From Rhizaria sp. SCN 62-66 (Eukaryota), in assembly GCA_001724265.1 (NCBI GenBank), contig MEDY01000010.1:1-64000 (forward strand): a DNA stretch of 64,000 nucleotides. Direction: 5' to 3'. Both the position numbers and the translations under genes were made by a program. Of the stretch, positions 17,696 to 63,527 are shown piece after piece. The notes beneath the pieces were generated by a model. The model was not told the DNA's origin and searched no databases. It worked only from the letters and a program-made list of their open reading frames with translations. How positions within the stretch are numbered: position 1 is the stretch's first letter; each line of letters begins with the position of its first letter.

Positions 17696-17732
<37 letters not shown>

Positions 17733-30000: not shown

Positions 30001-30808
30001 GACTCCGCAAAAGCAGCAGCAACAACAGACTGCACCCGCTGCAAACGCTCGTTCTCACGGTCCCGGAAATGGTCACGGCCAGACCCAGCGTCAGAATCAG
30101 GGTCAGAGTCAAAGCGCCCGCAAGCCCGTCGCGAACTCAACCAACTCAGCGGCAAAGCCACAAGGCCAGCAGCAGCAGCAGCAGCAGGGCAAAGACCAGC
30201 CGCCGCCGCAAGGGGCCGGCGACGCCTACCCTGCCGTCGCCGGGCACTCGTTCTCCTCGGCCCAGCACGCGCGCGGGCGCCTCGAGGCGCGCCAGTGGGT
30301 CGAGACCGCGGCGGCCGCGACCGCCGCCGCACGCACGCGCCGCCCCGCGCCGGCCCCGCGCCCCGATGACGGCGAGGGCGGCGCGGCGGCCGGGCAGATG
30401 AGCGGCGGGCAGATGGGCGGGCACGCACTAGTCCCGTTGGCGGCCGTGAAGCAGGACAAAGACAGCAGGTTCCTGCGCGGGAACCATCACTCGCAGTACT
30501 CGCGCAAGGCGCTCGAGGCCGTGGACCTGACGTACCGCGCCTACGAGGGACCCGACAGCGAGGACGAGCTGGGCAGCGACGACGACGGCGGCGGCGGCAG
30601 CGGCAACGGCAACGGTGGCAAAAGCGGCAACGGCCGGTACTTCAACGCGAAGCTGCGGCACCATTTCCCGGTTGCACTGCGGAGCTTTTTGCTGGCGTAC
30701 AAGAAGACAGTGCAGCCCAAGCTGGCCGCGCTGGGGCTGGAGCAGCAGCAGGGCCGAGACGGCGGACCGCATCAGCAGTAGCAGCACCACGGTGGCGAGT
30801 ACAACTGA
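27021..30808 (+). CDS. Unknown Gln/Asn/Ser/Gly-rich, probably disordered protein; TAG at 30779-30781 probably read through to TGA at 30806-30808
   Basis: join(27021..27310, 27466..30808) with a phase 2 intron GTACGT...TATAG that is frame-consistent. The end reads CAT CAG CAG TAG CAG CAC CAC GGT GGC GAG TAC AAC TGA. No known domain recognised. Confidence 0.7.
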
Positions 30809-32255: not shown

Positions 32256-32843
32256 AGCCAGCGGTCGGAGGAAGGTAAGATCATATTTTAAAGCAAGATG
32301 TAACGTACGACCGTCTTCAGGGAGTGGAAGAAACTCATTGTAAAGCTTCGGAGAATAAGATGGAGGCACGAGGGTGAGCAAAAACCAGAGTTAGTGAGAC
32401 ATCGAGACAGATGGGCAATCAAATGTGATGGTAAAACTTCCGAGTCTGAATTCGCATGCAGCACCGCTGCTTTCGGCGTGATAAAAAGAGTAAAATAGAT
32501 CCCAGTATGTGATCAATGTAGATACATCAAGACAAAACAGTTTCACGCGCAGAATGATGCAGAGAAACGAAGTCAATCAAAGAATCGAGATTCTCCGAAA
32601 TCGCGAGCACGCGACCGCAACAACCCACGGCCATTCCAGAATCGACTTGTGGTCAACCTGCCGTTCAAACGTAAATGTGCATTTTCTCACCCAAGACCGC
32701 TGCCTGATGAGATATCATTGCATACCATGGGTATGAAAGAAGTTGAACTATCATAAACAATGTATTAAACTCAGTTAGAATAATTAATCACTGGACACAA
32801 CGAGGCTCTCTTGAACCCATTACACAACAAAACTGCGACGCAC

Positions 32844-35445: not shown

Positions 35446-35829
35446 AATGCGTGGGGATAAGAGCTGCGAAAAAGCAGCGACGTTCGAGGAGAGGCTGTGA
35501 AAGCAAGAGAAGTTTGTCGAGCCCACAACGGTTAGCTGGCTGGAGCGGAGGGTCTGTGGAGGAAAACGAAATGAACAAGAGTAGAGGCAAGATGTGTGAG
35601 TGGCAGCGTATAATTAAAGGAATATATCCAAAGTACAGTTGGCAGTTTCGCACGATTATTCGCATTCCTGTTCATCGGATCAGTGACTTAATTTACTCTG
35701 TTGATTCTTCGCGCTCACCCCATCCACACTCACGACTCCACCCCGTGTGCGACTGCGATATCGCAGGTTCTGCCTTAGAGACGCAACCTACCTTTCAACT
35801 AACAGACCCATTGGCTACATTCCGCTGCC

Positions 35830-38800
35830 ATGGCGTCACTTCTGAAGAACAAACTTCTGTCAATCGGTACGCCCCCTATCATATCTTGATTTCCCTGCTC
35901 CGCACTGCACGCACGCTCGCACCTGCCTCACGTATCCCCTCCACGCACTCCCTCGCACCCGCAGTCGGCGGCGGTGCCGGCCGCAAGCAGCGCGCCGTCG
36001 CCGTTGAAGCTCCGGTCCAGACTGTCGCTTTTGACACTTCGAGCAAGGGCGAGTTGGACGCGATTCAGAACATCTTCCTCGACCACGTAGACACGATCGC
36101 GCTCCCCCTCGCGCCCGCGGTCCTCGCCGCCTCCGCGCTCCCGCTCTCTTCCGCGGCCGCCGCGGTCATTGCCGCGTCCACATCGGCGACAGACCCGTCC
36201 CGTGTTCCGCTGCCGCGCTTCCCGCTGCTGCCCGCCGCACTGGCCGCCGCTGACCAGCTCTGCGCGGACCTCTGCCCGGCCGACCTCGTGCGCTCGCCCA
36301 CCAGCGCGCTCGCCAATATAACCACCGCAACGCTTGACGCAGCCGCTAATAGCACTCTCGCTAGCACACTCGCATCCGTTGCGCACTCTAGCGCCGGCCA
36401 CGCCACCAGCAGCGCGGCTGCAAGCGAGAACCGCGTCTGGAAGCACGTGTTCGGCGCAGACTCGACCCCCACCGCCTCGGGCAACCCCGCCTCGCCGACG
36501 GTCGCCCACTCCGCGCGCGCCGCTGCGGCGCTCCTGTTTCCTGACGTGGAGCACGCCGACGGCAAGAGCGCCGCGGAGCCGTTACCGCGCGCATTGCTGA
36601 ATGCGGCCTCGTTCGTGCGCCCCGCCGCCGCCGTGCCCGCCGCTGCCGCGGCCGCGCCCGCCGCGTGGCTGGCAGCACTGCCCACGCCGCTCACGCTGCG
36701 CGCCGCGCTGCGCCGGGCGCTGCTGCGGCGCATCGACGTCAAGGACGCGCTATGCGACGCCGAGGGCAACAAGGCACGCGGGACGGCGCCGGCTGACAAC
36801 GGCGGTGCGCAGGACGCGTTCGTGTCCGCGACCGTGTTGACGCGGGCGACGAAGACGAGCAGCTCTACAGCAGCTGCGAACGCCGCGGATAACAGCAATG
36901 CCAGTTCTACCAGTGCTAATGTGACAGCAACGACCGAGGCGGATGTTATCTACATCCTCCCTCCTTCTATCGTCGCTGCAACCTCAAGCGCTAGCAGTAG
37001 AGGCAGTGGCCAACAGTCGCCCACCTCCGACAGCAACAACAGCAAGGCGCCTGTGTCGAGCTCTGGTGACTCTAAGCGTGGTGCGGCGAAGCTCCGCAGC
37101 AAGGGTACTTACCCTGGCACTTACCTGATCCTTACCGGCAGTCACACCGACCTTCCTTTCGGCCGCTCTAGCAACAGCAACAGTAACAACAGCAGCAGCA
37201 GCAGCAGCAGCAATACCGCAGCTGCTCAAAGTCAGTTTGATCCGCTGGCGCTGCCGAGTGCTGCGTTTGAGGCGCACTGCAATCTCCTAGCGCTGTTGTT
37301 GCGTGAGCTTTTGGCGCACCTGCACGCCTGCGTCGCCTCCGCCCCCAGCCTCCCCAGCAACAGCAGTGCAAACAGCCACTCCAACAGCGGCGCCACTGGT
37401 TCGGGCTCGAGCGCCACCGCAGCCACGGTGAACGAGGGCTCTCTGCTCAGCACGCCGCAAGCGCTTGTCTGCGGCGAGCTCGCGCAGTTCGCGCTGTCCC
37501 CGCTGGCGTGGTCACCCCGGGCGCTGCTGCAGCGCGCAGCTTACCTGGCCGCGCTCGTCCGTTTCTACAGTCAACTGCGGTACAACTGGGCGGTTATCAA
37601 CGCCGACGCCGCGGCCACGGTCACCTCTGCGGCGGCCGCAGTGACGGCGTCCACCTCTGTCGTCGTCGCCCCCGCCGCTGTCACCGCCAGCAGTGCTGCC
37701 GGGAGCAAGGGAGACGCTGCCGCCGCTGCCGCCGCCGCTGCTGCGAACGCGAACGATAGCTACGCGGACGGCCTACTGGCGCCCGGTCCTGGCCACCCGC
37801 CGCGGCTGCGCTTCATCGCTCTGCTGCAGGCGAGCACGCTGCTGTTGCGCTTTGCTGCCACCCGGCTGACGCGCGCCGCCGCCGCGCAGTCGCTGCGCCG
37901 CTCGCTGCTCGCCACGGTTGTCTCCGCGCGCGCCGCGGTCACGGCCGCGGTCGGCGCGAGCGTGTACGTGGCTGGGACCGCGCCGCTGCCGGTGACCGCT
38001 CCCAGGGACCAGGACCTGCCCGCGCTGCGCGGCGACTGTGAGCACGCCGAGGAAAGCGCTCATAGTGGCGACAACGCTGTGCCGGCGTCGGCGACTGCGA
38101 CCGTGGGCAGTGAGCAACAAGAGACGTGGGCGAGTGTGTGCTACTCCGTGAATAGTGCTGGCGAGGGCGGTGAGTCTGCGGGCTTACAGACATCGACTGT
38201 AACTGCGACGTCGCTCGCTCTGTCGACGCCGGCGCTGCGTGCGCTGTTCCCGACAACCGCGACGCACACGAACGCCCAGACCGGCGCACTCGCGCACTCG
38301 AGTGCGAGTGAACTGAGTGGCGTTGATCTTGTTGACGCGGTGTTCCCGTCTGTCATCACGCCCGTGACCGCCACCGGCACCGTTCCGCTGGTGTTCCCCA
38401 CGATCCCCACATCAAGCAGCACAATGGCAACCGGCGCAACTGCGAAGATTGCGCCCGCTGTGGCACTGCCTCAGTGGGTGTCTTCATCCCTCGCTGTTTT
38501 ATTCTCGTTCGCGCCATCTGCGCCTCTCGCATCAGCCGCTGCGTTCTCCTCAGCAGCCTCTGCCGCGGCGCACGATAACTCAAGCGGCAACAACGACCTT
38601 CCGTTCCTGCTCGCCGGCGACCCTGCGGCGCGCGCCTTGCTCGGTCAGCTCTCCGCTCTCACGGCCGCGCTCGGCGAGGCCGCGCTCACGGCGTTGCACG
38701 CGGCGACTCTGTCGTACACGCAGAGCGACTGCGAGCAGCATCAAATCGCGGACGCGCTGCGGATGCACGCTGCCGGCAGTGGCCGTGATGCTATGGCGAG

Positions 38801-41800
38801 CGCTGTCGCCGCCGCAGCTGGGTTCGAGAGCCCCTGGGCTCCGTGGGACACCGCTGTTCACGGTTATGCATCGTCCAAGGCTAAGGGACAGCTGTCAAAG
38901 GACAACGTTGCCTCTGCTTGCGGTGTTGACCAGGATGACAACGCGTACTCGCAGTACCTGAACACAATATTTCCTACGCACTCAAAGAAGCACGGCGATA
39001 GCAGTGAAGAGGAGAAGTCCTCTGCATCCGGCTCGATTGCGACGCAGCTGCTGGGTCTCTCTGGTGATGACGCTCCGTTGATCTCACTTCTTGCGTTGCT
39101 CCACCGAGCCACGCTGACGCCAGAGCGCTCTGTCGACTCTGCTCTGAGGACTGCACTTCACGGCGCCACTCGCAACACTGGCCAGAGCAACGACGTCGGC
39201 AACAAGAGTACCGAGCCCGCGGCGACCGCCAATGCAGAGACGGCAGAAGTCTCTCTGCTGCGCCTTGGCGCTCTGTTGCGCTCTGTTCCCGCCCGCGGTG
39301 GCACATACGCCCAGGACTATCTGCACCTGCTCACGCAAGGCGAGCGCGACTTCTACGGCGTCTCCGTCGCTGTCAGCGCGAAACCTGCCGCGGCACCCGC
39401 GGATTGTGCTGCTGCAGCCGGGACTGCTGGCGCAGCGAGCGCTGGTACGAGCGACAGCGGGCCCGTGTCTATCAGTGGCGGCGCGCGCCGTAAGCGCGGC
39501 GGCAACATTGTCGTTCCGACTGACGCCAGTAGCGGCGCGCCCGTGACTGCCACTGTTAACGCGGACGAAATCAACACGAACGCAGCGTCCTCGGTCGGAC
39601 GTCGCTCCTTCGTTGGCTCACTTGTCGGTGCGGTCAGCTCAATCACCCACCTGGGCTCCGCCCTCAGCGGCAACGCTGCGGCGCCTGCCGCCGCCACGGC
39701 GGCTGTGGGCAGCGGCGCCGCTAGCTACTCTGCGGAGGAGATGAAGCGCGAGCTGCTGAGTCAGCAGGGCGCGTGGTACACCCCGATCGACTGGAACGCC
39801 CCCTACACCGCGTCGCTCACCAGTGGCACCTTCGCCGAGGCCAATGCCGCGCCGGGCACGTCGCTGCCACTGGGCACCAACACGGCCACGCTCTCGCACT
39901 TCCTGCTCCCGCGCCTGTCGCCGCGCCAGCTCGCCGCCGCGCGCGCCGCCGCTGACGCCACCGCGGCGCTTGCCGCCGCGACTGCCGCCTGCGCGCGCGC
40001 GCTGCTGGCCCGCGCCCACGCGCACCGCGTCGCATACGCGTTGCGCGGCGGCCTCGCGTCCTGCGCCGGCACGCTCGGCCCCGCCGCGCTGCTCACGCTG
40101 CCCCCACTGTCGGTGCTCTTCCCCGTCGGTGGCGCCGCCGCCGCGCCGCCGATGCAGTCTGGCCTCGTCGCCACTGCGCTGCAGGCTGCGGCCGAGGCGG
40201 CGGCGCGCGTGTCGCTGGCGACGCTGCAACGCGGCGTCCGCGAGCGCCGTGCACGCGCGCTGGCCATCCAGGCCGCGGCCAACGCGAACGCCTCTGTCGC
40301 GGCATCCTCGCAGCAACGCTTTGGCCGCAACAGCATTGCCACCGAGTCTGGCGCCCGGAGCCGTGGCGCGCGCACGTCCGTCGCCCTCGTCGACAAACGA
40401 CGTGGCTCTGCGCTGAACTCCGCCTCAAGCTTTGTCCTTAACAGTTTGACGACCGCGGCCAGCGCGCGCGTGGCTGGCTTTGATAGCGATGAGGTGTTGC
40501 TGCGGCTGCTCGACATGCTCGACGCGGACGGTGCATTCAGCCCTCTATCTCCCTCAAGTCCTGAGGACTTTAGTTCCTTCAACTACAGCTACAATAGCAG
40601 TGGTAAGAACGATGGCAATGGCTCTCGTGTTGCTCAGTGGAGGCAGGACGTTTCTGCAGCGCGTGATGCAGCGCCCGCGCTTGGTTCTCTTTGCACCAGT
40701 GACACCTCTGTCGCCAACGTGCAGAAGCAGCGCTCTGCCGCGCTTGCATGGCTGCTGACTGGCGTCCCCCTCTCCAAGCCCTCCGGTATTTGTGAAGACA
40801 CGGGCATCAGCGGCGCCCCTGGTGACGCTGCTGCGTTGCTTTGGCGCGACTATGATAGCAACGCTGTGGCTGCAGCCTCGGACGCGAGCAAGCAAAACAC
40901 TACCTCGGTGTTTCCTTTCGCTGACCAAATCGCGCTCACAGTCACCTCGATGGCCTCCGCGGGCGACGCCGCCGCGCAAAGCGCCGCCGACGCGCTGTCG
41001 CTCCCGACTGGCGCCTCCGTGCTCGCGAGCAACGCGGGCAACAACACCGGCGCGCGGAGCGAGAGCTCCCAGGCGCTGCAGATGATGTCGGCGCCACTCT
41101 GGTCTGTGGACGCAGGGAAGCACTTTGCCGAGACTGGCACGGTCTTCTCGTCGATGCAGCTGCAGGACATGATTAGGCCCGCCGCGCTTGCGCAGGCCCT
41201 GCTCACGGTCACCGGCCAGACGGTCATCGGCGCAGCCACCGCTGCTCTTTCGCCCGCTGAGAGCGCTGCTACGAACATCACCGCGAACACTGGTGACAGC
41301 ATTCTGGGTGGTGTAGACGCTGACGTCGCCGCCGCGGCCGAGCTGCGCCGCTGGGGTCTTGACGTGGGCGTCATGTCGCTGCACTCCGCCCTCGCCGCTG
41401 CCCCGCTGCCACCCGCCCTCACGCTCTCGCGCCGCGGCCGCCCCGGCGCTAGCGCTAGTCTCGCGCTCAGCGGCCGCGACTGGGGCCTTGTCCGCTCTGC
41501 CGACTGTGCTCCGCTCGCTCCTGTCGCGCTTGCCGCGGCCGACGACGCGCTGCGCGCAGCTGTGCCAACGCTCGCCACTGCCACCGCGGCGAACACCGGC
41601 GCGAAGGGAGCGCACCTCGCCCCGCGCCCGCAGTCTGCGTTCTCGGCAGCAGAGTCTGCGTTCGCAGCGCTGAGTCAGGACAACATTGTTGACTCTGCCG
41701 CCACGACGTCGCCGTTTGCGCTGCCATTTCACCTCTTTGCCGCTCTTGTTACGCCCTGGGGCTCCGACGCCTGTGTCGCCACGCTCGCCGCGATTGCCGC

Positions 41801-44800
41801 TGCGGACGCCGACGCCGCGGGCGCTGCGGGCCCCCGCGCCGCGCTGCCACCGCTGAGCGCCGTCCCCGGCGCCGGCAGGCACACCACGAGCATCTTCGCT
41901 GCCCCTGTCACTCCCACGGGTGCCGCATCTAATAGTGCGTCTTCTCTTACGACTGGATCTGCGACGCATGCTGTTGTTTCTGCCGCTCCGGCGCTGTCGT
42001 ACCTTGCCTCCGCGGCCGCTGTTGCCGCGTGGGGTCAGAACGTCATCGTGGCGACCTCCGCGTGCGCTCGCCTTGAGTCTGCTGCAACGGCTGCGCGGGG
42101 CTCCGCTGCCGCCGCGTGTGCGGCTGTTGATGCGCTGCTCCAGTCATACGTTGCGCTCGACGCCACGCGTGTGTCCCCCGGCTTGTTCAGCGAGCCGATG
42201 AATGTGATCATGGCTGCGATGAATGCCATCACTGGAAGCGCGACTGCGGGCAATGCCAGCGAGAAGCTACCCTCGCTGGCGACACCGGACGGCCTGTACG
42301 CCCGCGCTAGTGTGTGGGACACGCGCACCGCGACTGCAGTCGACCTGTCGCGCTCGCGCTGCCGCGCAACCGCTGCCGCGGCTGTCAAAAGCGCAACCGT
42401 GAGCAAGAAGGCCTCTAAGAAGCCCAAGCTTCTGAAGTCTCTTTTCAACAAGCTCTCGCGCTCTGTGAAGCGCTCCGCGGAGCCAAACTCGGTTGCCTCA
42501 CCTGAGTCTGCATCTGCTACAGCAGCTGGTAGTGACTCTGCTGTCATTGTTGTCTCACGCGCGCGCTCCCGCACCGTTGCGCGTCCCGCGGCCGCCGCCG
42601 TGGCGGTACCATCTGCGACTACCGGACTGCCCCCGCTGGCGGCGCTCGCTGCAGCTGTCGCGAAGACACTCTCGCTCGCCAACCCGCTTGGTCTTGTGAC
42701 GCTCACTGGTGGCGCTCCGTCCCGCGCTATTCTGAGCACTGACGGCAGCGTCAGCACTGCTCGCGGCTACGGTCGCGCGGCGGCCAACGCAGGTCCTGCC
42801 GTGTACGCAACATCGATCACCGCTCTCGCCGCCGGTGTGACGGTCTTCAACGCGGCACTGCTCTCGGCGACGTGCCAGACCATCTCCCCTCTTATCATCC
42901 TGCCCCCGTCTCCGTCGCTGTTGCTGCAGTCATTGCCGGGCTCCACATCGATCGCTGTGACCGCGACTGTCGCGCCTGCGCTGGCCCCGGTCTCGACCCG
43001 CCTGCTCCTGCGCGGCACGCTCGCAGTGCGCACTCGCCGCGGCCGCGCCGCGCTCGCCGCTGCTGCGGCCGCGCAGGAGGCTGCGTACTTCGCGGCCCGC
43101 GGAGCCACCGTGCTCACGGTCACGCCTTTTGCAGCGGCAGCTATTGCCGCTGCAGCGGCGGCTTCTGCCGCTGCTGCAGCCGCGGCTGCTGGCGAGGGCA
43201 GTGAGGCGACCGAAAGCTTCGCTGAGGCGGGAGTCGTCGGCAGCGCAACCGAGATTGCCACGAGTCCTGCCACAGCTGCCGCGAAGTCCGCTGGGGCTGA
43301 GTCTGCTGCAGTCGCCGCGATCGCCGCTCCCGAGGTCACGGCTGCGGGTGCGCTGATCGAACTAGCGGGCCTCGGTGACTTGTCCGACTTCTCTTCTGAT
43401 TCGGACAGCGAGACTGAGAGCGTGAGCGATGACGATGCCAAGAAGAACAATTCAGACTCTGATTCCGACAGCGGTAGTGACAGCAATCGCGCCTCGAACC
43501 CATTTGCGAAGAGCAAGAGTACTGTGAACGTGTTCGCCAAGAACAAGACCACGGCTGCTCCCCCTGCGCAAACCGTTGTTTTGCCGCCTCAACAGAACGC
43601 GCCCATTGTTCTTCGCGGCCGCAAGTCTGTCGCGTTTGCCAAGCCTCCTGTTGAGGCTGCTGCGGCCGGAGCTGCGGCAACACTCGAGGTCATCAATGAG
43701 TCGGAGCCTGCTGGCACAGAGAGCAACAAGAACAGCGAGACCGTTGCCGATGTTGCTGTGACCGCAGAGACCTTGCTCGGCCTGACCGAGGCCTCTGCGG
43801 ATAGCGGCGTCAGTGGGACCAACCCGTTCGACGATGACACCGCAGCGACGGTGGTTGGGTCTGCGGACAACGCGCCGACGGAAGTCACTGACGCGGACGC
43901 TGCGTCGGCCTCGTCGTGGCTTCACAAGCTCATCTTGGCTCTTAAGGCCGGTGACAACGCTCCCGCAAGCACTAGCTTGAACGCCAACAACAGCTCATCA
44001 GCCTCCACGGCTGCGCTTGGTGGCAACGGCGGAGACGATAACGCTGACGACGACACTGGCAACAACGTGTGGGGCCGTAGCTCTCGTGCGGGTCTGTCGC
44101 CGATCACGATGCGCAAGCGCGGTGCCGGGCGCCGTCAGAACCGTTCCGAGTCGACTGCCAACGCTGAAGACGACGCTGCTGAGAACGCCGCCGCCGACTC
44201 TAATGCTGCCGCCAAGGCTGTCAGCAACGAGTCGCGTGACCTGTCTCTGTCGGAGTCGCTGGCGTGGCTCGCATCCTCCCCGCTGTTCTCGCCCGAGTCT
44301 GTTGCCGCGCGCGTGGCCGGCGCGGACGCCGGAGCTGCCCGGTACGACTTCGCGCACTATGCAGGCTGGCTTGCCGAGCTCGACACCGCGGGCCCCACTG
44401 CGGCCCCCGCGCCGTCTCCGCTCGACGCCACGCTTGACACGACTGTCCATGGCAGTGCACATGCTGTCGCTAATGCTGGCGACGCATCTGAAAGTGCAAC
44501 TGCAGTTGACATGACTGAGGTTGCCGCCGTTGTCGCGGCGCGGGCCAGGCCGGTGCTGCTTGAGCTCAAGGAGCTTGACTGCGCAGCCGCTGGTCTTGTC
44601 GCCGCGCTTTCGCAGACGCACGCGCGCGCGCAATTGCGTGTTGCCGCGAGCTCTAAGAGCGCGGCGTTCGATGACAGCGAGTTCTTAGTCAACAGTGCGA
44701 TGCTGCGCGCGATTGGCGCTGTGCCTCATCACGGTGTTGTCTCTGCTGCTCGGTACTACCGCTCGAGCGCCGATGGTGCTGCCGTCGAGCCGTTCGACTG

Positions 44801-47800
44801 CGGTGACGCCGGCCGTGGCGAGGCAAGCATGAGTCTGGATTCGATCATTGACCAAGTCGCTGCCAGCACCGGACTGTACTCGTTGCCGCACGCCGCCAAG
44901 GACGCTGTTACAACTGCGACCACTAAGACAACGACGACAACCGTCACCACGATGACCATGACGACAACGACTACAACAACAACAGCACCTGCCGTTGCCG
45001 CTGTCAGTGCGACTGCTACAGCTGTCTCCGTCGTGGCTCAGTCGCAACAGCTGCTCCGTCAGCAGCCGCACGATCCGTTCCCGCGCTTACGCCGCCTCGT
45101 TGCCTCTTCTCGCCGCGCTGCCGCCGCCTCGCTGCTGCAGGCCGCGAAGCTTCTCGCCTCCCCCGCGACTGCCGGTTCTCTCTACAACCCCGCTCTCGCG
45201 CGCGCCCTGCTGCTGCGCGCCGTCGACGTCGCGCCTCTCGCCGAGTCAGACGCGCTCGCGCTCCTAGCGCTCCTGCTGCGCTGGGACCAGCACACTGCGG
45301 CGAACAGCGCCTGTGCGACTGCGACCCCCGAGTTTGTTGCTGATGCTGATCGGAATACCCTTGATGTTAGTGCTTGGGTGTCAACAGATGACGCAGCGCA
45401 CCCGCTGCCTTTGCCGTCCGAGCCCGACGCCGCATCGACTGCGAGCGCGCCGCCCGCAATGCTGCCGTTGCCGCCCGCCGCCCCGCTTACCCCTGGTGCC
45501 GTGTTGCCGCCGGCGCTGCTCTTTGTACCAGCATCCGCGACGCACGCCTCCACTGCGGGCCTCTACCGCGGCCTCAGCCTGCATGGCGCTGCGAACACCA
45601 ACAAAAACTGCAACGCGAGTGCCTCGCTTGCCGCGCTGTTCCCCGCGCCGTCGTCTCTCGTTAACAACGCATTTGCTCGCCTCACGCACCTCAACCTGAC
45701 CGGCAGTGGCCTGAGCTACTATTCGGGCGCTGCGCCCCCGCTGGCCGCCGCGTCTCTGTTTGCGGTTGCGTCGACGACGGGACCCTACGCCGCTCTGCCA
45801 CCGCCGGGCTCCGCGTTCGCCGCGCTACTGCAAACGCTGCGCGCAGCTGCAGGCGCTGTGCGCAGCGTCGTGTTGGACAAGAACCCTGGCATGGGCGAGG
45901 AGGGCGCGATCGCGGTCACTGAGCTTATTGCGCCGTACTCGTTCGTCACGTTTGTGCGCGCTCTCAAGGCGCATAGTCTGATCGCAAAGTTCGAGAACAA
46001 CGCTGCAAACGCGCTGACGTGCACTCACGCCAACTCGAATGACACGGACGACAAGAAGAAGAAGAAGTGGAGCAAGTCCTCTGAGGAAGACACTACAGTG
46101 CGTTTCTCCCCGCCTCCCGCATCGCCCCTCACGCTCGGCGGCCTGACTTCTCTCTCAATGCGCGACTGCTCCGTCGGTCCCATCGCGAGTCTCTATCTGG
46201 CCTTCGCGCTGGCCTCGCCCGACGGCCCGGTGTTGTCCCTGCTGAACCTCGGCGACAACCCGCTCGGAGAGACGCCTGCGCTGGCCATCGCCGCCGCCCT
46301 GCGCATCCGCGCGTCTGCGGCCGAGCTCACTGCCGCTGCAGCTATCTCAGAGGTACCTCACACTGCGACGTCGGTGAATACCGCGCACGATGAACTAAAG
46401 CCTGCTGTAACCGCAGGAGCCTTCTTCTCGAACTTCTCCGTGTTGTCTTCCGACTGCGCGCGCATGGCTAAGCACAACGCTGCTGTCACTGATGGCGTCG
46501 AGCGCCGCCGTCGCGCCGCGTATGAGGCCTTCTCGACTGCAACTGCCGACTCAGAAACCACTGGCGCCGATGTGGCGAGTGCGCCCACCACTGAGATTGA
46601 CGCAAGTGCCAGTGCCAGTGCCCTTGACGCATACATGGCGATGCTTAATGTTGACGACAACGCAGCCAGCAGCAATGCGAACGAGAACAATGAGGAGTCG
46701 ATTGAGGATGCTGTGACCCACAAGAACGCGCATGACGACGTGGCTAACCACGCGGTTGTTGCTGAGCCCACCGTCACGTTCGACGGCACGCCGTCGCTGC
46801 TGCCCTTGCTCGCCCCCGCGCCGCTGCCGCGCCCGACCGCGCTGCCCGCCGCCGCAGTGCTGCCGACGCACGTCTCCCTCGACGTCACCGGTGCCGGCGA
46901 CGGCGCCGCGGCCGCGTGGACCGCGCTGTTGCTGTCACTGCAGCTGCCTACGGTCGCCGGCACGCGCCCGCCGCCCGCCCCCACGGTGTTCCTCGGGGTG
47001 AGGGCGCTGGAGGGCCACGAGGACCGGTGGCGCGAGCAGCGGGCGGCTCGCAGTGAGTACCTCGCTCACGTGGCTGAAAAGAGTGCGGCCCAGTCTCGTG
47101 AGAACGCGTCTAAGGCGGCCCCCGAGATTGTGCACGAAGCCGCTGATGCCGTTAGCGACGCCACGTTGACTGCTCCTGTTGCTTCGAGTGCCGAGACCGC
47201 TGCTGAAGATACAGTTGTCCGCAAGTCCCCCACGCTGGCACCTGCCCTGCCCCGTGCCGCGCCGCCGCGCCTGCTGCCTTCGTCGCCCCCTCCCAAGCTC
47301 TCTGCCACAAGTACGGCGTCATCAGCTGGGGTTGATGCTCCAGCGAAGCCTCCGAGCGGCGCTGCGTCTCCCTTAGTTGCCGCGCTGCCTACAATCACCC
47401 TGTGGTTCCGTCGTCGTCCGCTGTCACTGCAGACGCGGCTCGACTTCTTGCACCCGCTGCTCACTCTGCCTGCGGCTGTGACCCGCTGCGACAAGGGTCA
47501 GAGTGGCAACGGTGACTGTGAGCAGTGCACTGAGGCGCGGAGTAAGAAGCAGCACTCTGGTGACTCGCAGCACTCCGTGTTGACGGTGCTGCTTCGCGGC
47601 AACGGCGTCGCGCCTACCCCTCTCGCGCTTGCACTCACGGAGGCACTGGATCAAGCCACGCACGAGCCCGAGTCGCATGTGGCTGACGCTGCGAAGAACT
47701 CTGCATCAGCAAGCGTCGAGAACGACGAGTTTGGTTGTGTTGTCTACCGCGCGCTGCCTGCGCCGCCTCGCGTCACCGAGCGCCGCCGTCCGACGCCGCT

Positions 47801-53800: not shown

Positions 53801-56800
53801 CGCCACGCTCGCGCCCTTCGCCGCCCTGTCTGCAGCCGCGCCTGCTGTTGCGCCGACCGCGGCCGTCGCGCTTGCTGAGGCGGAAGCCAGTCTGCTGCGT
53901 GCGTTCGCTCTCTGCCCTGCTATCCCGGTTACGCTTGTGCTCCTCCGCCGCTGCCGCACCGCTGCGCGCGCACTTCCGGTTATGCTGTCTGCGGCCGACG
54001 CGTCTGACCTGAGCACCTGCACTGTCAGCGGCAAGAACGGCGTTGCTAGTAGTAGTAGCGCTGACGAAGCGCTCTCGCTGCTCTTGAGCTCGCAAGCAAC
54101 GCCATATTCTCGCGCCACAGCGTTCGCGACCCCCGTGCTCGCTTCAGCGACGCCGGCGCTACTCCGCGCAGTCTCGCTCACTACAACGACCGGTTCCCTT
54201 AGCGGCGCTGGCAGCAACGGCGCTGTGACGTCTCGCGGCGTTGCCGCACTGGTGTCCGCACTTATGACGCGTGGCGACCGCTCGCTCGCGCATCTCAACG
54301 TCAGTGGTAACCCTCGTCTTGGTGACACTGGTCTGGCGCTTCTGCTGCCTCTTCTCTTCCCTTCATCTGCCTCCACAGTGTGCAGCTCAAGTCGTGTTAC
54401 ATCGACCGCAGATGCCCGCCCTGCCATCCGCTCTCTGTCCGCGTGTGGCATCGGTGCTTCAGAGTTCTCTGCAACCGCTCTCGCTGCCGCGCTTGCGTGC
54501 GCGTCGCCACGCTTCACCTCTCTCGAGCGCCTCGACCTGTCTTCAAACCCGCTCGGCGACGACGGCGGCGCTGCGCTTCTCACAGTCATCCCACGGTCCC
54601 CCGCCGGCCTACTGCTGCGTTCAGTCTTCCTGCGCGAATGCGACCTGGGCCCCAAGTCCGCCCGTTCTGCGCTGCGCGCGCTCGCCGCGTCGCCGTTGCT
54701 GGCCCGCGTGGACATGGAGGCCTGCCCCGCGCTGATGCATGCGCCGGTGTGGGCGCCCGGCGCGCTGGTGCCGCCGTTCTCGGCCGCGCTTGTCGGCATG
54801 CCGTTCGGCCCCCAGTCGGGCTCGCTGGGCGGCCAGGTCGAGGCGTGCGGTATGGAGCAGCGCAGGCAGTGGGCGCACTGGCAGCATGTGGTTGACGCGA
54901 TTCTAGCCACGAACATCGCGGTCAAGGGCGCTGGAAACGCGAACTTTGCGGATTTTTTGAGTGGCAAGACATCGCCGATGTTGTTTGCGCCGCTGCCGTC
55001 GACGGCCGCACTGCTCCGCGTGCGCGGCCTAACTTCTGATGCCGTATTGACGCAGCTGCACAAGCACATCCTGTCTCTGCCGATCGAGGCCTACGTGACT
55101 GCCGTTGATGCTGCGCTCGCCGACCCTCTGCGCACGCCCACGGCCGGCGATCGCGACAGCGCGCATGCTGTCATGATGCCGGCCTTCAACGGCAACATCG
55201 GCACTTTTGGTGCTCCTTCCACTGTTTCCGCATCTGTTGCTGTTGCACGCGCGCAAGCAGCGGTCCATGCGTTCGCAGTGTTCCGTGCCATGGGCGGGCA
55301 CTTAAGTCAAGCTGCGGCCCGCCTCGCGCGCGCTGTTGCTACGATCCGCACCGCGCGTAACACCGCGACCGGCGTTTATGTGGCTGCGACCGCGTTCTCG
55401 ACTGCAGCCACGTCGCTTCCGCGCTGGCTCGCCGCCGGCACCGCGCAGCCACCGTTCTTGCTGACCGCGTACACTGAGCTCGCACTGCTGCTGCCGCGCC
55501 TGCTCGCGCTCTGCGCTCACGTGCCTGCCGCCGCTGCAGCTCCCGTCATCGCTCAGCCTGCCGGCATGTCTTCTGACGCCGCCACGCCGCTGTTGACTGC
55601 CGGTCTGGGCAACATCGCGGTTGCGATGCAGCAGCCGTTCCTGCCCCTGTGGCTTCTGTCCGCGGCTGAGCTCGCCGCCTCTGTCACGAAGCACGTCTCT
55701 GTCCGCCTCGCTGCGGCCCGTGACTTGGCGTCCGGTGACGAGGCCCGTCTCACTGCCGCCGCGAAGCGCGCCAGCAATAGTACTCCCACCGCGACCGCGA
55801 ACGGGGGCGGTGGTGCGGACAGCGCTGCCGTGTCGGTGGCCAACGTCGGCCTGCTTGACGAAGCGATTGCTATTGTACACGCTGATTTTGGCATGATCAC
55901 GAGCTTTACTACGACTGCGCTTTCGCCGACCAACAGCTCCGTGTCGGAGGCGCACCACGCCGGGTCTCAGGATCACAACGTTGTGGCCACCGGCATGACT
56001 GCGGCTGAGCCCGTGTCGCCGGTCGCCAGCACCGCGTTCACGCACGACGACGACGACCTGGAGAGTGCCTTCGCCCGCGTTCAGTCTGCGCCTGTACCGG
56101 CCCCCTTGAAGCAGTCTCCGTTTGCTCCGTCCACGATCGACCAGGCTTCATCCTCCGCGGCTGAGACTGCAGCTGCGACTACCGCTTCATCGTCCGGTGC
56201 AGCCGCCGCTGTTTCCGCACTGCGTGGCGGGCTCTGCCACCCGCGCCACCTGCCTGTCGCGCTGCAGACTGCGATTGCGCGTGCGCGCACGACTGTGGGC
56301 GCGTTGGGTCCCCGCCGGCTGCGCTGCGTCGACGGACTTGGACAGCTGCGTCAGAAGCTCTCAGCGCTCGCGACCGCGGCGGCTGCCGTTGCTGCGGAGG
56401 CCGCAGCAGGCGCGCGCGACGAGTCGGAGCGCGGGCCTGCGGTGACGGCTGCGCAGACACTGGGACTGCTCGCAAACACCGTCGGTGAGGTCGCGCATAA
56501 TGGCATTCGCGGCAAGGAGCAGATCGCGGCGCTTGTTGCGATCGGCGTTGACGAGGCCATCGCAGAGGTTCTTTGGGATGAGGAGGAGCATGAGGCTGCT
56601 AGCAGCAACAACAAGTCTTCTGCGAAGCACGCTGGCGCTCATGTGAGCAAGCTCTCGTTTGAGAGCGATGCTAAGACGGACACTGCTAGCACTGCCGCTA
56701 GCGGCATGAAGCCGACTGAAGCAAAGGCAAGCAAGTCCGCGTCATCCAACCCCTTTGATGATGGCAACTCTGATGGCGAGAAGTCTGACGCTTCTGATAA

Positions 56801-59800
56801 GAGCGATGGCAGTGATGCCAATGGAGATAGCGACGGCGACATCAGCAACCTGTTTAACAAGAAGGCTAGTAGTTTTAAGAAGCTTGCTACTGCTGATTCT
56901 GACTCGGAGGCCGAGGCTGACTTCGATCTCAACTCAGACTCAGACTCCGACGATATTAACAGTCATAAGAAGTCCACTGGCGTGCACGCGTCTTCGTCGC
57001 CGCGCGCGACCGTGGTCTCCCGCGCTGAACACGCTGTGCGCCGCGCGTGGCGGTCAGTCTATTCCATCACTGGTCTCAACCCCAACGCTGTGCATATACA
57101 CAGTCAAGCGCACGCACACGGCGACCCGTTGTCTCCGATCAAGCCGTCGGCGCTCGACCGTTTCCTACCATGGCGCCAGAAGCAACGGCAGCAACAGCAG
57201 CAGCAACAGCACCCTCACCAGCAGCAGCACCAGCAGCAGCCCGGTGGCGGCGTGTGGGTGCCGCAGTCGCTGCGCCGCTACGAGGGCCACCGCGCCGTGC
57301 TCGCCCGCCGCCCGCTCGCCAAGGCGCTGGAAGACCTCGCCGAGATCGCAGAGGAGGGCCGCGCCGTGCTGCGCTCGCTCCCGCGCCACTTCAATCTCTA
57401 CACACCCGGCGCGCCCGGCGCTCCCGGCGACGTCAACGCCGGCGCCGACGCCGAGTGGGTGAGCGAGCCAGGGCTGTACGTCTGGTCCTGCTTGTTCGCG
57501 CAATTCCACGCGCGCATTCTCTACCTCTTTGCAGCGCGCTTCCACATGCCGCTTGGCGGCTCATCCTCCAGCACCGAATACTCACCGGCGGACATCCTGC
57601 GCTTGTCGGCCTGGCTGCGTGAGTTTGCCCGCACGCAGCACGCTATTGCTGCCGCCACGCTGCCCGCTGCCGCACCTGCCGCACTGTCCGCTGGCGCCGC
57701 TCAGGGTCCCAAGGGCACTGCGACCGCGCTCGCGGCGTTGATGGCGTACTGCCCGTCGTTCACCGCTGTGACGCGGAACGACCTGCCCCCGCCTCCGCCG
57801 CGCGCTGCTGAGGGCGCATACGTCTCGTCGCATCAGGCCGCGGTTGCTGCGGCGACGCTCAAGATGCCCCGTGGCGCGCTGTTGCGCGCGGCGCCCGCGG
57901 CTGTTACCGCCGCGGCAGCGCTGCTCGCCGGCGCAGGCACACACACGCATCACCTGATGTACCCGCTTACTGTCACTGCCACTGCGGCTGCCGCGGGTGC
58001 CCATTCCAACGCTATTGCGAACTCCGTGACCGACAGCGCCGCGCTTCCCGCTATCTCGCCACTGTTCGTGCTCAACTTTGCCCGCACCGACATGCCCGCC
58101 GCGGCGTGCACCGCGCAGACGCTCGCGTACGCGCGCGCTGTCGACTCGCGCTACGTCGCCGCCACGCGCCTGCGTCTGATGCAGTGGGCGTCGAGTGCGC
58201 TGCGCGTCGAGCAAGACCGCTTGCTCACGCTCGCTGCGCCTCCGGTCACCGTCGACGCGACCGCAGCCGGGACCACTACGGGCGCTGAGAAGAGCGCCGG
58301 CGGCTCTGCCACGGACAAGGCTGGCCAGCGTCGCGTGCTGCGCCAGCTCACTGCCTCGGGCCGCCGCATCAACCACACGTGCCAGAACGCAGACGTGCCC
58401 GCTGGCGACGACTGCCACTGCGACGTGTTCGTGTATGATTCGCGCGGCTTCGTGCGCACGACGGCACCGGAGGACTTGTTCTCTGCGCTAGCTGTGGCGC
58501 TGCCTGAGCTCTGGCGCGCCTCGCTCGCAGGCCTCTCTGCGCCTGCTCTTGGTCTTGGTGATGCCACTGCTGGCGCCTCGAAGGTCGTGCGCAGCAGTAG
58601 TGGCTATGATAGCTGCAATGGCGCGACCGTTAGTGTGTATGCGTTGTCTCGTCTCACGCACAGCTACCTTGAGGCCGCGCCCGCTGCTGATGAAAGTGAC
58701 TCAGCGCCCTGTGCCACGACTCTCGCGTCCGCCGCGCTTGACGACGGCGCCGACGCCGTTGAGCTGCCCTGGCCTGTGCCGGGCTCCTTCATGCTCGCAG
58801 CGGTCGCGTGCGTCACGGACGTTGTCAGCATGTTCCAGCGCAACCTCACTGCGCTCTCTGGCATTTCACCCGCTGCAGCTGCTGCTGCCGCCGCCGCTGC
58901 TAACACAGTCAACTCCAACGCAACTGGCATTGCGATCGCGCCTCACCGCGCCGCTGCTGCCCTTGCCGCCGCCGCGTCGTCTGGTGCGCTGTCGCTTACG
59001 CAAGCGCCTGCCTCTGCTCACGGCACGGCTGGTGATGCAAACGGCACTAGTGGGAATGCAGCGGCTGCGGGTGGTGGCGCGTCCTCTGCCGCTGCCATCA
59101 CGCGCTGGGCGCAGATGCAACGCGCGCTGGAGACCGCGCGCGCCGCGCACGCTACCGCTGCTGTTGCAACTGCAACGGCCAACGGGAGAATGAATAACAC
59201 AATGGGCCACGGTGCGAGTGCCCATGAGAGCACCCTTGAGTCTATCCAGAGTGCGATCGTGTCGTCTGGTCCCGTTTTCCCTGCTTTCTTCACCACTGCC
59301 ATCAACGCTGCCACGAACCACGGCCACGACGAACACAGCAACGCCGCGCCGTCGCCCGCCTCTGTTGCGCGCATCACAAGTGACCTGCTCGGCGCCGCCG
59401 GCACGCTGCCTCGCATCGCGCTTGTGGTGCGCTACTTGCACGCGCAGATCAACAACTGCAGCGAATATGCGCGCCGCCTGGTTCGCGAGTGCGGTGAGAA
59501 GGCTGTGGCGCATATGGACAGCACGTACTCTACGCTTCTCCGCAAGAACAGCAGTGTACGCGGACAGACTGCAGTTACTGCCGCGACGCAGAGTGTCTTC
59601 TCTGATACCATCGATGCATGTGCGAAGGAGCCTTCCGGCTTGACTTTTTACAGTGAGGTCTTCATTGACGCTCTCACTGCAGCACGCACTGCTGCACAGA
59701 AAAAGTCGCTCGTTAAGACCGTTTCTAACTCAACATTGACTGCATCCGACGCTGTCGCCACCGCGCGCTTGCGCCGCGCGTACCACTGCGAACGCTCTGC

Positions 59801-62800
59801 CGTGCGCGCCGCGTTCGCTCACTGTGCCGCGCACTTCACGGGCGAGACCGTGGCTCCCTCTGCACAGTCGTCTGCCGCTATCGCGAACGCTGCTGCCTCC
59901 GCGCGCACCGGCTCCGTCGCGCAGTCTCCGTCCGCCGCGGCCTCGCACGCGCTGACGGCGGCCACCCGCACTGTAACTCTGCTGCCCGTTGGCGACAGTG
60001 TTGCGGGCGCCTTTGCCAAGAGTCTGCTGCGTCAGCTCTCTGCGACGCTGCAAGCCGTGCTATACCACACGCACACGCACGCTAACACCGGTTCCAGCGC
60101 GGGGCACGGCGAAGGGGCGCTCTCCGCACTCGCCGCGACGCTCGGGCTCTCGGCCCCCTCTGACCCCACGCCGGTCTCGCTCTCAGCGGCCGCCTCGCTG
60201 CCGCGCCGCCTCGTCGCCGCGCTCTCGGGCTTCGCGGCCTCGGACCCGCTCGCAGCCGCGATGCGCGACGTCCTAGCCGGCGACGCCGCCCGCGCCGCCG
60301 CAGCCACGCGCGCCGCTGGCGCCCTCTTCTCCCCGTCCTGGGCCTTTGAAGACAACGCCGCGCTCGCGTCGCTGCTAGCGCGCCTTACCGCGGCCGAGAC
60401 CGACGCCGCTGAGGCCCTCAGCGCCGCCCGCGCGCGCGTCGCCACGGTCATCACCGCGCTGCGCGGGCTCTACAACGAGCGCGCCGCGCCGGGGCAGGCC
60501 ATCGACGGCGCGCCGACCGTCATGATCTACAACCCTGACGAAGGCTCCGCTGCAGGTGGCGCCGGCGCTGGCGCGGGATCGCTGGCGGGCGCGGCACGAC
60601 TGGGCGCGCTCTGGGGCAGCAACCTGGCCCCCGCTGCCGCTGCCGCGACTGCCGCCAGCGCTGGTGCTGCCGCAGGTGGTCTTGAGCCTGCTGGGCGCTC
60701 GCGCGGCGGCGCCGTCGCCCCCGCGTCCGCCACCGCTGCTGCGGACGCTGCACCGGCCCGCACGCGCGGCCTGAGCGTTGCGACGGCGTTCTACAACAAC
60801 CGCGAGCGCGCTGCTACCGCTGTGCGCGGCCGCCGGCTCTCGACCGTACTCGCCACCGGTAACAGCGGTGCTGCGGGTGGGTCGTCCGCGTACCGGAGGC
60901 AAGACACGATTGCGGAGGACGACGAAGAGGACGAGAACAACGCCGACAGCGAGAGCTCACGCAACCCTTTCGAGGACGACGATAATAACTCCGCACCTGG
61001 CGCATCCGCCTACAGCAACAACAGCAGTGGTGTGGCTGCGATTATGGTCACCTCCTCGCTCACCGCTGGCGACTCCTCGTCCTCCGCCGTCGCCGCCGCG
61101 CTCCCCGCCACGACGCTTGCGACGCTTGCGCTGGTCTCGGCGCTGTGCTCCGGCGCGATTATGGACCGCGTGCGCTCGCCCGCGCACTGCGCCTTCATGC
61201 TTCGCGCCGCGAAGCAGCTCTTCCTGTCCGCCTACGCCAAGGCATTCGCGGCCTACGGCGGTTCGGAGCACCTGCTCGCCGCGCTCAAGGCTACGGTCAA
61301 GGCCGCGCCGAAGAGCGCCCCCGCGGTTGACGCCGCCACGCAGCGCGCCAGGGAGCTCGTCGCCGCGGGTCCCGCAGCCGCAGCCGGCGTGCTGGGCAAG
61401 CACCTGACTGGGGACGACGCGCTGTACCGCTCGCTGTTCGCGGCGCTGACGGCGGAGGCGTCGGCCGAGCTCATGGAACAGCGCGAGTCGATGCTGCGCG
61501 CGCAGAGCCTTAAGCTCAAGAACAAGAGCAAGGCGGGCAATGACGATGACGATGACACCTACGAAAGCGGTGAGATTGGCGACGATGACGAGGAAGACGC
61601 GTTCATCTGGCTCTCGCAGATGCAGACGCAGATCCAACTCGAGAACGCGTCGCTTCTCCGCCGCGCCCGCGCTGCCGCTGCTGCTTCTCATCAGAATCAT
61701 GGAGATGCCGCTTCTGGTGACGCTGTGGACGACGAAGAGCAGGACGACGAAACCCCTGCGGCCGAAGCCGTCGCCGTCATCAACGGCGTCTCGACCTCGG
61801 AGCACGACAACAGCGTCGCGTCCTCCACCGACGCCCGCGCCGACTCGATCATCGCCGCCATCGCGGCCCTTATTTCCCCCAGCGCAGCCCCTGCGGAGGG
61901 CTTTGCGACGCCCGACGAGGCCGAGGCCGCGCTCACCGCGAGCCTCATCGCGCGCCTCCGCCTCGGCTCCCAGGACGACTCGGCGCGCCTGCCCGGCATG
62001 GGGCTGCTGGCGGCGCTGCCATCGCGGCTGCCGCTGCTGCTGCCGGGAGCCGCAACCGCGCTGGACGAGGCCGCGTGCGGCGTGGCGCTCTACCTCAGCA
62101 AGCGCGGCGACCTCTCGCGGCAAGCGCGGCACCGCGTTGTGGCGGCGCTGCTCAGCACCGTCACCACGGGCTACGGCGCCGCGGACCTGCCCCCGCTCAC
62201 GGTTACCGCGGCGGACATGGAGCACGCTGCGCAGTCGGCCGAGGCGACCGTGGTCAACGTGCTGCGGGCCACGCCGGGCAACGCCACGGCTGCGCTGCCC
62301 GCCAGCGACGCCGCCGCGCTGCTGCCGGTCGCCCTGTGGGCCGCGGTGCCCACGGACGCCGTCGCCGCACTGCTGCAGCGCGGCGAGCGTGCGCTCTCTG
62401 AAAGCGCGGACCACAGCGCTTACCACGACGACAGCGGGGACGCCGTCGCTGCGGCTGTGCCTGGGGGTGGGCTGGCTTTGGAAGCGACGCGCGTACTCGT
62501 CGCCTCGATCCGCTCGACGACATCCACCGCCAACAACCACAGCCATGGCCACGGCCACAATAACAACAACAACAGCAACAACGCTGCTGGCGCTGCGCAT
62601 GACAGCGCTGCCCACAGCAACCCGATTGCCAACGCGTCTCTGGTGTCCAACTCCGCGCTGGTCTCGCTGACGGCGCTGGAGAAGGCCCTCGCGCGCGGCG
62701 CCGACGCGCTCAAGACGCAGGTCGGCTTGCTGATGCCAGTCGCGGTCATGCGCGTGGGCGCGCCGTCCCTCGGCGCGCTGCTTGCGCCTGACGCCACGAC

Positions 62801-62953
62801 CGGAGGCGGCGGCACGCCTGCTGCGACGCATGGGGCTGGCGAAGGAGAGAGTCTGGGCGATAAGGCCAAGGCGCTGTTCTCGAAGTTCAAACACCGGAAT
62901 CAGCCGCAGCAGCACAACGAAGCTCGCGCTCATGAACAACAACAACAGCAATC

Positions 62954-63003
<50 letters not shown>

Positions 63004-63089
63004 AACAAGCTCAGACAGAGACGCAGAGTGACGCCGGCAAGGTTGTGAATGCGGCCAAGGAGAAGTTGAAGAACTGGTTCAAGTGGTAA
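35830..63089 (+). CDS. Giant ~9,053-aa Ala-rich protein with two RI-type LRR clusters, five NPF motifs and a C-terminal exocyst Sec6/EXOC3-like region
   Basis: join(35830..35866, 35965..63089) = 27162 nt. Exon 1 MASLLKNKLLSI is followed by a 98-nt GTACGC...CGCAG intron in the correct phase, then a 27,125-nt stop-free exon. LRRs at ~45680-46300 and ~54285-54730; Sec6-like motifs at ~57470-62150. Ends TAA. Confidence 0.8.
52800..53180 (+). repeat. Degenerate peptide repeat (G/A)PRGS(V/I), about a dozen copies
   Basis: Translation reads GPRGSVARGSV...GPRGSVSGPRGSITAAPRGSISGPRGSISAAPRGSV...GPRGSIALARGSI...GPRGSL...VRGSV. Confidence 0.9.
62935..63009 (+). repeat. CAG/CAA microsatellite encoding poly-Gln
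   Basis: QQQQQ S followed by about 18 Q near the C-terminus of the giant protein. Confidence 0.9.
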
Positions 63090-63527
63090 ATGAAACGTAC
63101 TCGAGCTTGCAGTGTAACACTTCATGTTTTTTACAAATTAAGATTGATTCGGGTAATTCCATTGAAATGATAGACTTTCATATGTACTTCTATGTTAACA
63201 CTTTTCACATTTAAATAATACATTTTTATTTTCATATCTCTTCATTTTGAACCACGGCTCATTTTTGCTATTTTTGTCGTAAGCATCAGGCCACAGGTCG
63301 TCAATAGGAAGCTAGAAGAGAGAGAGCCTTTCTGAAAGTGAGATTGCATCTAAAGTTTTGATTCTTGATTTACGACTCACAACATCCGTGACGTACAGTG
63401 TTGTTACGATACCCAGTGCATATTTAATCTACAATTTACAGATATATTATATACACTCGTAAATAACTCAATCATAACCGTGTACACCTTGATTACAATC
63501 CGACCCACGCAGATTTCCGTTCCGGTC

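Follow-up and report, generated by a model that had tools for sequence, protein, structure and literature searches.

Which kind of protein is encoded by a single exon of 27 kb, and can such a protein be assigned to any known family? This question is raised by a gene on contig MEDY01000010.1 (NCBI GenBank assembly GCA_001724265.1) of Rhizaria sp. SCN 62-66, of which positions 1 to 64,000 of the forward strand were analysed (this whole stretch of 64,000 nucleotides is referred to as the window, and all coordinates given below are positions in it). An earlier examination of the letters alone, here called the original prediction, had described the gene as coding for a giant protein in which two clusters of leucine-rich repeats (LRRs) are followed by ordered motifs resembling the exocyst subunit Sec6/EXOC3, and had proposed a lineage-specific giant tethering or scaffold protein. 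As set out in the following, the gene is a real one, whereas its product, judged by its sequence, is not a recognisable Sec6. Five NPF motifs in acidic tracts are newly described here, as part of a proposed giant LRR scaffold with trafficking motifs.

Gene structure and coding signal

Between positions 35451 and 63089 of the plus strand a single frame runs through 9,212 codons without a stop, while the remaining five frames, counted in steps of 1,500 nt, contain 1-41 stops per 1.5 kb. The GC content, profiled in 150-nt windows, stays at or above 0.47 throughout 35965-63089, whereas values of 0.25-0.41 are reached in introns and spacers of the window; it goes down to 0.41 over 35476-35900 and to 0.25 directly past the stop codon of the giant gene. 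Along the open reading frame (ORF), the GC content of third codon positions (GC3, 0.63-0.85) exceeds that of second positions (GC2) in 17 of 18 chunks of 1.5 kb.

Near its start, the main frame offers in-frame ATGs at codons 41 and 48, the next one following at codon 992. Another ATG, at 35830, lies in a different frame; 37 nt from it begins a donor, G/GTACGC, and 98 nt further on stands CCGCAG/ (slashes marking the splice sites), so that joining 35866 to 35965 regains the main frame and gives a product of 9,053 amino acids (aa) with one terminal stop. The putative exon 1 (35830-35866, plus strand) consists of 12 codons, beginning with the ATG, and one base, reads MASLLKNKLLSI- and joins in phase with the main exon (35965-63089, plus strand), which measures 27.1 kb including the stop codon and is delimited by the stop-free frame and the GC profile. 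The donor heptamer of the putative 98-nt GT..AG intron (35867-35964, plus strand) recurs unchanged at intron 1 of the HMG-CoA lyase gene in the same window (24471); two other homology-supported introns of the window have the donors GTCCGT and GTTCGT, the lengths of these introns being 113-189 nt. Read from the sequence, the spliced start is likely but unproven. The in-frame ATG of codon 41 (35571) is less likely as a start, because 35476-35900 has a spacer-like GC content of 0.41 and a PCF11-like gene running in the opposite direction begins at 35445; the giant gene and this PCF11/PCFS4-like gene therefore diverge from a short common spacer. This is one real protein-coding gene, which in the likely spliced form starts with an exon of 37 nt, is interrupted by one intron of 98 nt, continues in a single exon of 27.1 kb and codes for about 9,053 aa, and in this respect the original prediction of some 9,050 aa encoded nearly completely by one 27-kb exon has been borne out.

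The same DNA is found outside the assembly. Among the matches listed, at least nine sequencing runs contain part of 35001-45000, and four runs, from three studies of bioreactor, wastewater and activated-sludge material, contain at least half of the sampled words of this interval. In a contig comparison covering 32001-52000, seven contigs listed for an independent DNA sample (1.4-2.9 kb) showed no differences, and seven listed for a polyA metatranscriptome library (229-717 nt), all within the ORF, showed 0-1 differences and no gaps. Both the DNA contigs and the short RNA-library contigs are colinear with the giant gene over 36010-52000. None of the 15 joints among the matches listed for 32001-52000 has GT..AG ends; in 14 of them the shorter side is just 20-22 nt long, and the remaining one (42 nt) lies outside the giant gene. 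Most listed joints come from the DNA run, and the only one of the RNA library (X5) is likewise outside the giant gene. RNA-library contigs thus suggest transcription of the giant gene, which is not proven since such contigs may include DNA. At the putative intron the cover of the RNA library is almost nil (thin, for example, over 35336-36002), which neither confirms nor refutes it, and a 1,194-nt contig from a run of unspecified kind crosses the intron unspliced. Seven contig variants fall in the ORF, five of them non-synonymous and two synonymous, without any new stop; some of these may be errors. The source is an uncultured, GC-rich, intron-poor eukaryote of bioreactor and wastewater metagenomes.

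Several further ORFs of 376-722 aa overlap the giant one (40554-41969, 53741-55069 and 60957-63125 on the minus strand, 61540-62670 on the plus strand). No Pfam match was found in any of them, and they probably are by-products of GC-rich, Ala-codon-rich DNA. A scan of the window with Rfam gave 0 matches.

Leucine-rich repeats and NPF motifs in a low-complexity giant

The ORF product is composed of 22.8% Ala, 10.7% Ser, 9.3% Leu and 7.6% Thr. Only 1,877 of the 9,212 residues, distributed over 23 islands, look ordered when a crude filter is applied, and about four fifths of the protein are Ala/Ser/Thr-rich low-complexity sequence, which presumably is flexible. A self-BLAST gave no trace of a large internal duplication (one off-diagonal pair, E 1.8).

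Among the ordered parts, the LRRs of the ribonuclease-inhibitor (RI) type are best supported in cluster 2 (54252-54710, plus strand; aa 6268-6420), where about 4-5 units can be counted by eye. This cluster matches the Pfam family LRR_6 (PF13516) with 36.4 bits (E 3.7e-9) in two stretches, the best being 54516-54578, and with 26.5 bits when searched within a long cut, the curated cut-off of the family being 23.4 bits. The LRR core pattern occurs six times in the protein, against 0.7 +/- 0.9 in 200 shuffles: three times in cluster 1 (aa 3470, 3565 and 3595), twice in cluster 2 (aa 6358 and 6389) and once in isolation at aa 4043. The distances between the cores at aa 6358/6389 and 3565/3595 are those of tandem units spaced by about 28-31 residues. 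Cluster 1 (45858-46316, plus strand; aa 3470-3622) has long inserts between its units, shows weak BLASTP similarity to cluster 2 (best E 0.052) and gives no Pfam match even at E<=10. We regard cluster 2 as firm and cluster 1 as probable; of the two RI-type clusters originally proposed, the second is upheld by Pfam and the first by its motif pattern only. Both LRR strings quoted in the proposal were found, one occurrence each, at aa 3595 and 6358. Cluster 2 shares with known RI-type LRR proteins the pattern LxxLxLxxNxLgdxG, the spacing of about 30 residues and a score above the cut-off; the giant protein differs from them in having just 4-5 units per cluster, broken by inserts, and in a predicted horseshoe that is unconfirmed, the AlphaFold2 model of aa 6230-6600 being unusable (mean predicted local distance difference test score, pLDDT, 39.2).

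Five NPF tripeptides are scattered over the protein, against 0.34 expected and a maximum of two in 300 shuffles, while none of the five alternative orders of these residues occurs in it. All five stand in Ser/Asp- or Glu/Asp-rich tracts. On the plus strand, the motif at 43497-43505 (aa 2683) follows a Ser/Asp-rich tract and continues as NPFAKSKS, that at 43821-43829 (aa 2791) reads NPFDDD, that at 51849-51857 (aa 5467) again follows a Ser/Asp-rich tract and reads NPFAKKS, that at 56748-56756 (aa 7100) reads NPFDDG with a Ser/Asp-rich tract after it, and the last, at 60963-60971 (aa 8505), follows an acidic tract, reads NPFEDDD and falls within the C-terminal helical region. Three of the five (NPFDDD, NPFDDG, NPFEDDD) are accordingly followed by acidic residues, and two, of the form SNPFAK(S)KSTV, by basic ones, after long Ser/Asp tracts. 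According to passages of PMC13282721, NPF is bound by all EH domains and acidic-flanked NPF is preferred by the EH domains of the EHD type, examples of such ligands being MICAL-L1, Rabenosyn-5, Rab11-FIP2 and Rabankyrin-5. We consider the NPF tracts of the giant protein to be predicted EH-domain ligands. With the four proteins named it shares the NPF-plus-acidic form and the presence of multiple copies in disordered scaffold regions; it has no sequence relationship to them, and two of its five NPF motifs are followed by basic residues. On CATCHR rods, acidic, aromatic-containing disordered stretches such as the 'lasso' of Dsl1 and similar tether loops capture coat or adaptor proteins. The giant protein has NPF in place of the Trp-acidic signals of the lasso, in five copies across 6,000 residues; the likeness would be one of functional analogy only.

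The C-terminal region is not a recognisable Sec6

The C-terminal region (57258-62504, plus strand; aa 7270-9018), delimited by the order filter, the motifs and the language-model neighbours discussed below, consists of seven ordered-looking islands with low-complexity inserts. Here the seven strings of the original prediction were indeed found, each once and in the order it gave, within aa 7349-8890 (57495-62120). Since all nine strings (seven motifs and two LRR strings) are present once each, the raw observation was accurate; the reading of these motifs as conserved Sec6 blocks found no support in Pfam, the PDB or the protein libraries.

The Pfam model of Sec6 (PF06046) has 537 positions and a cut-off of 29.7 bits. 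Neither Sec6 nor any other tether family was matched by two halves of the protein (E<=1), and neither Sec6 nor another CATCHR family by ten islands, six of them C-terminal, or by four C-terminal cuts (both E<=10), the cuts giving polyglutamine (polyQ) noise alone; the filters of HMMER discard most matches above E of about 0.1, so that a very weak similarity could escape. Exocyst, COG, GARP and Dsl1 profile families were absent from every Pfam cut of the giant protein. A phmmer search with aa 7260-8459 against 1.84 billion representative proteins of all lengths returned 0 matches at E<=0.001, and word-index searches for homologues of near lengths, run with aa 7300-9212 and aa 6200-6620, yielded 515 and 508 candidates, none of which reached E<=0.001. 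Two metagenome scans and one genome-contig scan with C-terminal pieces gave 88, 215 and 207 pattern matches, none of them confirmed. Among PDB chains, phmmer with 57468-62150 found no tether subunit and one noise match (ribosome-recycling factor, E 1.1). Three islands searched in the same way found no tether subunit either, one giving nothing, one a CobT chain (E 0.89) and one ankyrin-1/2 chains (E 0.0033). The Pfam searches that had been proposed as a check have thus recovered the LRRs of cluster 2 and not Sec6, and a match to the Sec6 profile within 57470-62150 is refuted.

The ankyrin match deserves a comment. Four ankyrin-1/2 chains match aa 7621-7688 (58311-58514, plus strand) with E 0.0033-0.61; the match covers the YDSRGFVRTTAPEDLF block, one of those taken for Sec6, and rests largely on the string EDxFxxLAVAL. 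Ankyrin repeats at this place probably are a chance result, given that a single short string is involved, that only ankyrin-1/2 chains respond and that Pfam Ank is silent at E<=10. That the YDSRGFVRTTAPEDLF block matches ankyrin indicates that short blocks of this kind discriminate poorly. Structure prediction by pieces, likewise proposed as a check, gave two AlphaFold2 models too poor for a fold call: besides that of LRR cluster 2, the single-sequence model of aa 7260-8140 has a mean pLDDT of 38.6, with 23 of 25 secondary-structure elements helical and an unreliable packing.

A language-model lead to CATCHR families

Compared by protein language model in the ESM Atlas, aa 7260-8146 gave a lead in a different direction. 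All of the best 10 of 30 rows belong to CATCHR tether families, with scores of 0.85-0.89 (Vps54 0.89; ZW10_C 0.88 and 0.86; Sec15_C 0.88, 0.87 and 0.87; Sec5 0.86; Syndetin_C 0.86; Dor1 0.85; COG5_C 0.85), while another piece of the protein, taken as a control (aa 3975-4578), had no usable match in the Atlas. In passages of a published classification (PMC8290106), these neighbours mostly belong to the group 'g54' (Vps54/ZW10/Sec15/COG5), some to 'g51', and Sec6 to 'g53', so that the lead does not speak for Sec6. We treat the neighbourhood as a lead and no proof. That the C-terminal region is some CATCHR-like rod appears to us slightly better than an even bet.

The g54 subunits, Vps54, ZW10 (Dsl1), Sec15 and COG5, which are the nearest language-model neighbours of aa 7260-8146, are helical rods following an N-terminal coiled coil. 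Known members are several-fold smaller and work in multi-subunit complexes, whereas the giant protein has no profile match and scores below 0.9. CATCHR proteins gain and lose domains, and plasticity of both size and domain content is documented in passages of PMC8290106. Among the papers listed by the literature searches, none was seen to describe LRRs or NPF arms combined with a CATCHR or Sec6 module.

A scaffold or tether in membrane traffic?

Building on the observed gene, with its composition, its LRRs and its enrichment in NPF, we infer a C-terminal fold, partners and a cellular role along the following lines. Acting in membrane traffic, the protein would serve as a scaffold or tether of great length and flexibility; its C-terminal helical module (possibly CATCHR-like, about 1,750 aa) and the two LRR patches would dock stably to partners, NPF and acidic tracts along kilobase-long disordered arms would capture EH-domain proteins, and the array of RGS units described further below may serve as a phosphoregulated segment. 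Of the readings considered, a giant, lineage-specific protein that works as scaffold or tether in membrane traffic remains the most plausible, with a probability that we would put a little under even; the tethering or scaffold role of the original prediction is thus still the favoured reading, whereas the specific assignment to Sec6/EXOC3 failed in each test run. A bolder version, namely a single-polypeptide giant tether of about 1 MDa in which a CATCHR-type rod, RI-type LRR docking and NPF/acidic arms do the work of multi-subunit tethers plus adaptors, we hold to be rather improbable.

Several points weigh against the proposal of a scaffold or tether in membrane traffic. The silence of Pfam over the C-terminal cuts and islands, of phmmer in the large protein library and of the PDB is one of them. 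The Atlas scores all lie below the 0.9 line, the recognition value is 1319 compared with a typical 2300 for known families, shared features number 102-139 instead of the usual 170 or more within a family, and of the ten best matches only three agree in family or clan with the first. Both AlphaFold models are unusable and give no evidence for the fold, and the ratio of five non-synonymous to two synonymous variants gives no sign of strong constraint, seven variants being too few. On the side of expression, the possible DNA content of the RNA-library contigs has been mentioned, and these contigs lie within 36010-52000 of the gene.

How do other explanations fare by comparison? One would deny the existence of a functional gene and see in the locus an ORF that GC-rich DNA leaves open by chance, a chimeric assembly or a pseudogene in decay. 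Long spurious ORFs are common in GC-rich DNA, antisense ORFs of 442-722 aa without Pfam match overlap the giant one, the homologue searches are empty and the few contig variants are mostly non-synonymous; against this, a stop-free run of 27.6 kb beside other frames with 1-41 stops per 1.5 kb is far past chance, GC3 exceeds GC2 almost throughout, Pfam-grade LRRs and the motif enrichments fall in this very frame, and the end of the frame coincides with the drop in GC to 0.25. Runs of three studies contain the same sequence, and independent contigs are colinear with it. An artefact of this kind is very improbable. A true, extremely divergent Sec6/EXOC3 homologue, be it the subunit or a paralogue, with a domain stretched by low-complexity inserts over about 1,540 aa and an LRR-bearing N-terminal extension of 7,000 aa, is also unlikely, if less extremely so. 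In passages of PMC6784791 the eight exocyst subunits are called well conserved across supergroups, lineage-specific components such as Exo99 exist, and divergent subunits, for example Sec5 and Exo84 of trypanosomatids, have been missed in silico before; passages of PMC8290106 include Sec6 in the CATCHR superfamily to which the Atlas neighbours belong. Together with the seven hydrophobic or charged motifs, present once each and in fixed order, these points keep Sec6 in the discussion. PF06046, however, is silent in the two halves, the four C-terminal cuts and the six C-terminal islands, although six of ten window ORFs with an equal low-complexity load are still recognised by Pfam; no Sec6 chain of the PDB was matched, Sec6 is missing from the best 10 of 30 Atlas rows, which fall in other groups than its own, and the YDSRGFVRTTAPEDLF motif matches an ankyrin chain. 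With Sec6/EXOC3 the giant protein has in common a C-terminal region that is all-helical in a low-confidence model, ordered, conserved-looking blocks matched to it in the original prediction and a possible role in tethering; it is set apart by a putative domain of about 1,540 aa against the 537 positions of the model, by 7,000 extra N-terminal residues with LRRs and by the lack of a profile, PDB or library match.

The more serious competitor is a lineage-specific, mostly disordered giant with LRR modules that is unrelated to tethers and functions elsewhere, for example in the cytoskeleton, the cilium, the nucleus or as a condensate scaffold, the CATCHR neighbourhood then being a by-product of long stretches that are helical and rich in Ala. 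We consider this possible, but would not expect it. It would account for the lack of any sequence or profile relatives in the searches run, for Atlas scores below the thresholds of the tool itself, for the roughly 80% of the protein failing the crude order filter and for the large low-complexity expansions which neighbouring genes carry as well. It explains less readily why the ten best of 30 Atlas rows belong to one superfamily, which represents a tiny share of protein space, while the control piece is empty, and why NPF is enriched, with five copies, within acidic tracts, a hallmark of endocytic and recycling adaptors. Returning to the scaffold or tether in membrane traffic: if its C-terminal region is a CATCHR module, the protein would be the first to combine a rod of the tether type with LRRs and EH-ligand arms on one giant polypeptide. 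It would then be a natural experiment on how a single molecule can acquire both the reach of a tether and the capture of partners, and an instance of CATCHR outside the canonical complexes. If the region is not CATCHR, the gene, with its 27-kb exon and 23% alanine, still illustrates how large low-complexity expansion may become in a protist that is GC-rich and poor in introns. It would then also call for caution with family assignments made from motifs by eye, which in such proteins are untrustworthy unless supported by a profile or a structure.

Further features of the giant protein

An array of 11 RGS[IVL] units, eight of them in the form PRGS, occupies 52836-53180 (plus strand; aa 5796-5910), compared with 0.56 units expected and a maximum of three in 200 shuffles; at the DNA level a tandem repeat of period 45/21 lies within it at 52908-53009. 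The units possibly represent phosphorylation sites. A strongly hydrophobic 19-mer, AAIAISALIPILSTLVLSL (49239-49295, plus strand; aa 4597-4615), is flanked by Arg and has a Kyte-Doolittle mean of 2.3, which makes it the sole segment of the giant protein at or above 2.2; it is a possible membrane anchor or buried helix. The protein ends with polyQ (CAG x 15.7) and a basic-aromatic tail, ...KEKLKNWFKW (62955-63086, plus strand), identified by reading the sequence and by a repeat scan.

Neighbouring genes

Head-to-head with the giant gene lies the PCF11/PCFS4-like gene (32844-35445, minus strand), which is recognised by zf_PCFS4 (E 4.3e-6) and has a C2H2 finger. Its first exon (35445-35135) is followed by an intron whose donor is GTTCGT and whose length is about 113 nt; we take this exon to be CID-like, Pfam giving no match on exon 1 alone. 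An ORF of 316 aa (31175-32125, minus strand) is charged and helical-looking and has no Pfam family, and two others (27434-30781, plus strand, 1,115 aa; 21422-23623, plus strand, 733 aa) are rich in Q, N, S, G and A and equally lack a Pfam family.

A run of genes on the same strand (1960-21274, plus strand) shows one long ORF per gene with big low-complexity additions. Pfam domains were found in six of ten large neighbouring ORFs (Pex14_N, PUB, NUDIX, saposin with GDSL lipase, DOT1 and PHD). From the large low-complexity expansions of these neighbours it follows that expansion is a habit of this genome, and low-complexity expansion looks genome-wide. A polycistron in the style of kinetoplastids was considered and rejected, since the window contains spliceosomal introns, few and short as they are, and the Pex14 domain resembles trypanosome chains no more closely than mammalian ones.

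The HMG-CoA lyase gene (24317-25692, plus strand) has three exons fixed by homology and introns of about 189 and 142 nt with the donors GTACGC and GTCCGT. A genome-contig scan with a 71%-identical relative of this lyase met only bacterial loci, at 56-66% identity. The product of exon 3 has metagenome relatives at 91, 86, 77, 77 and 71% identity, mostly on short contigs, followed by many lower matches at 56-71% from bacteria, oomycetes and animals; the relatives at 71-91% imply that related uncultured organisms exist.

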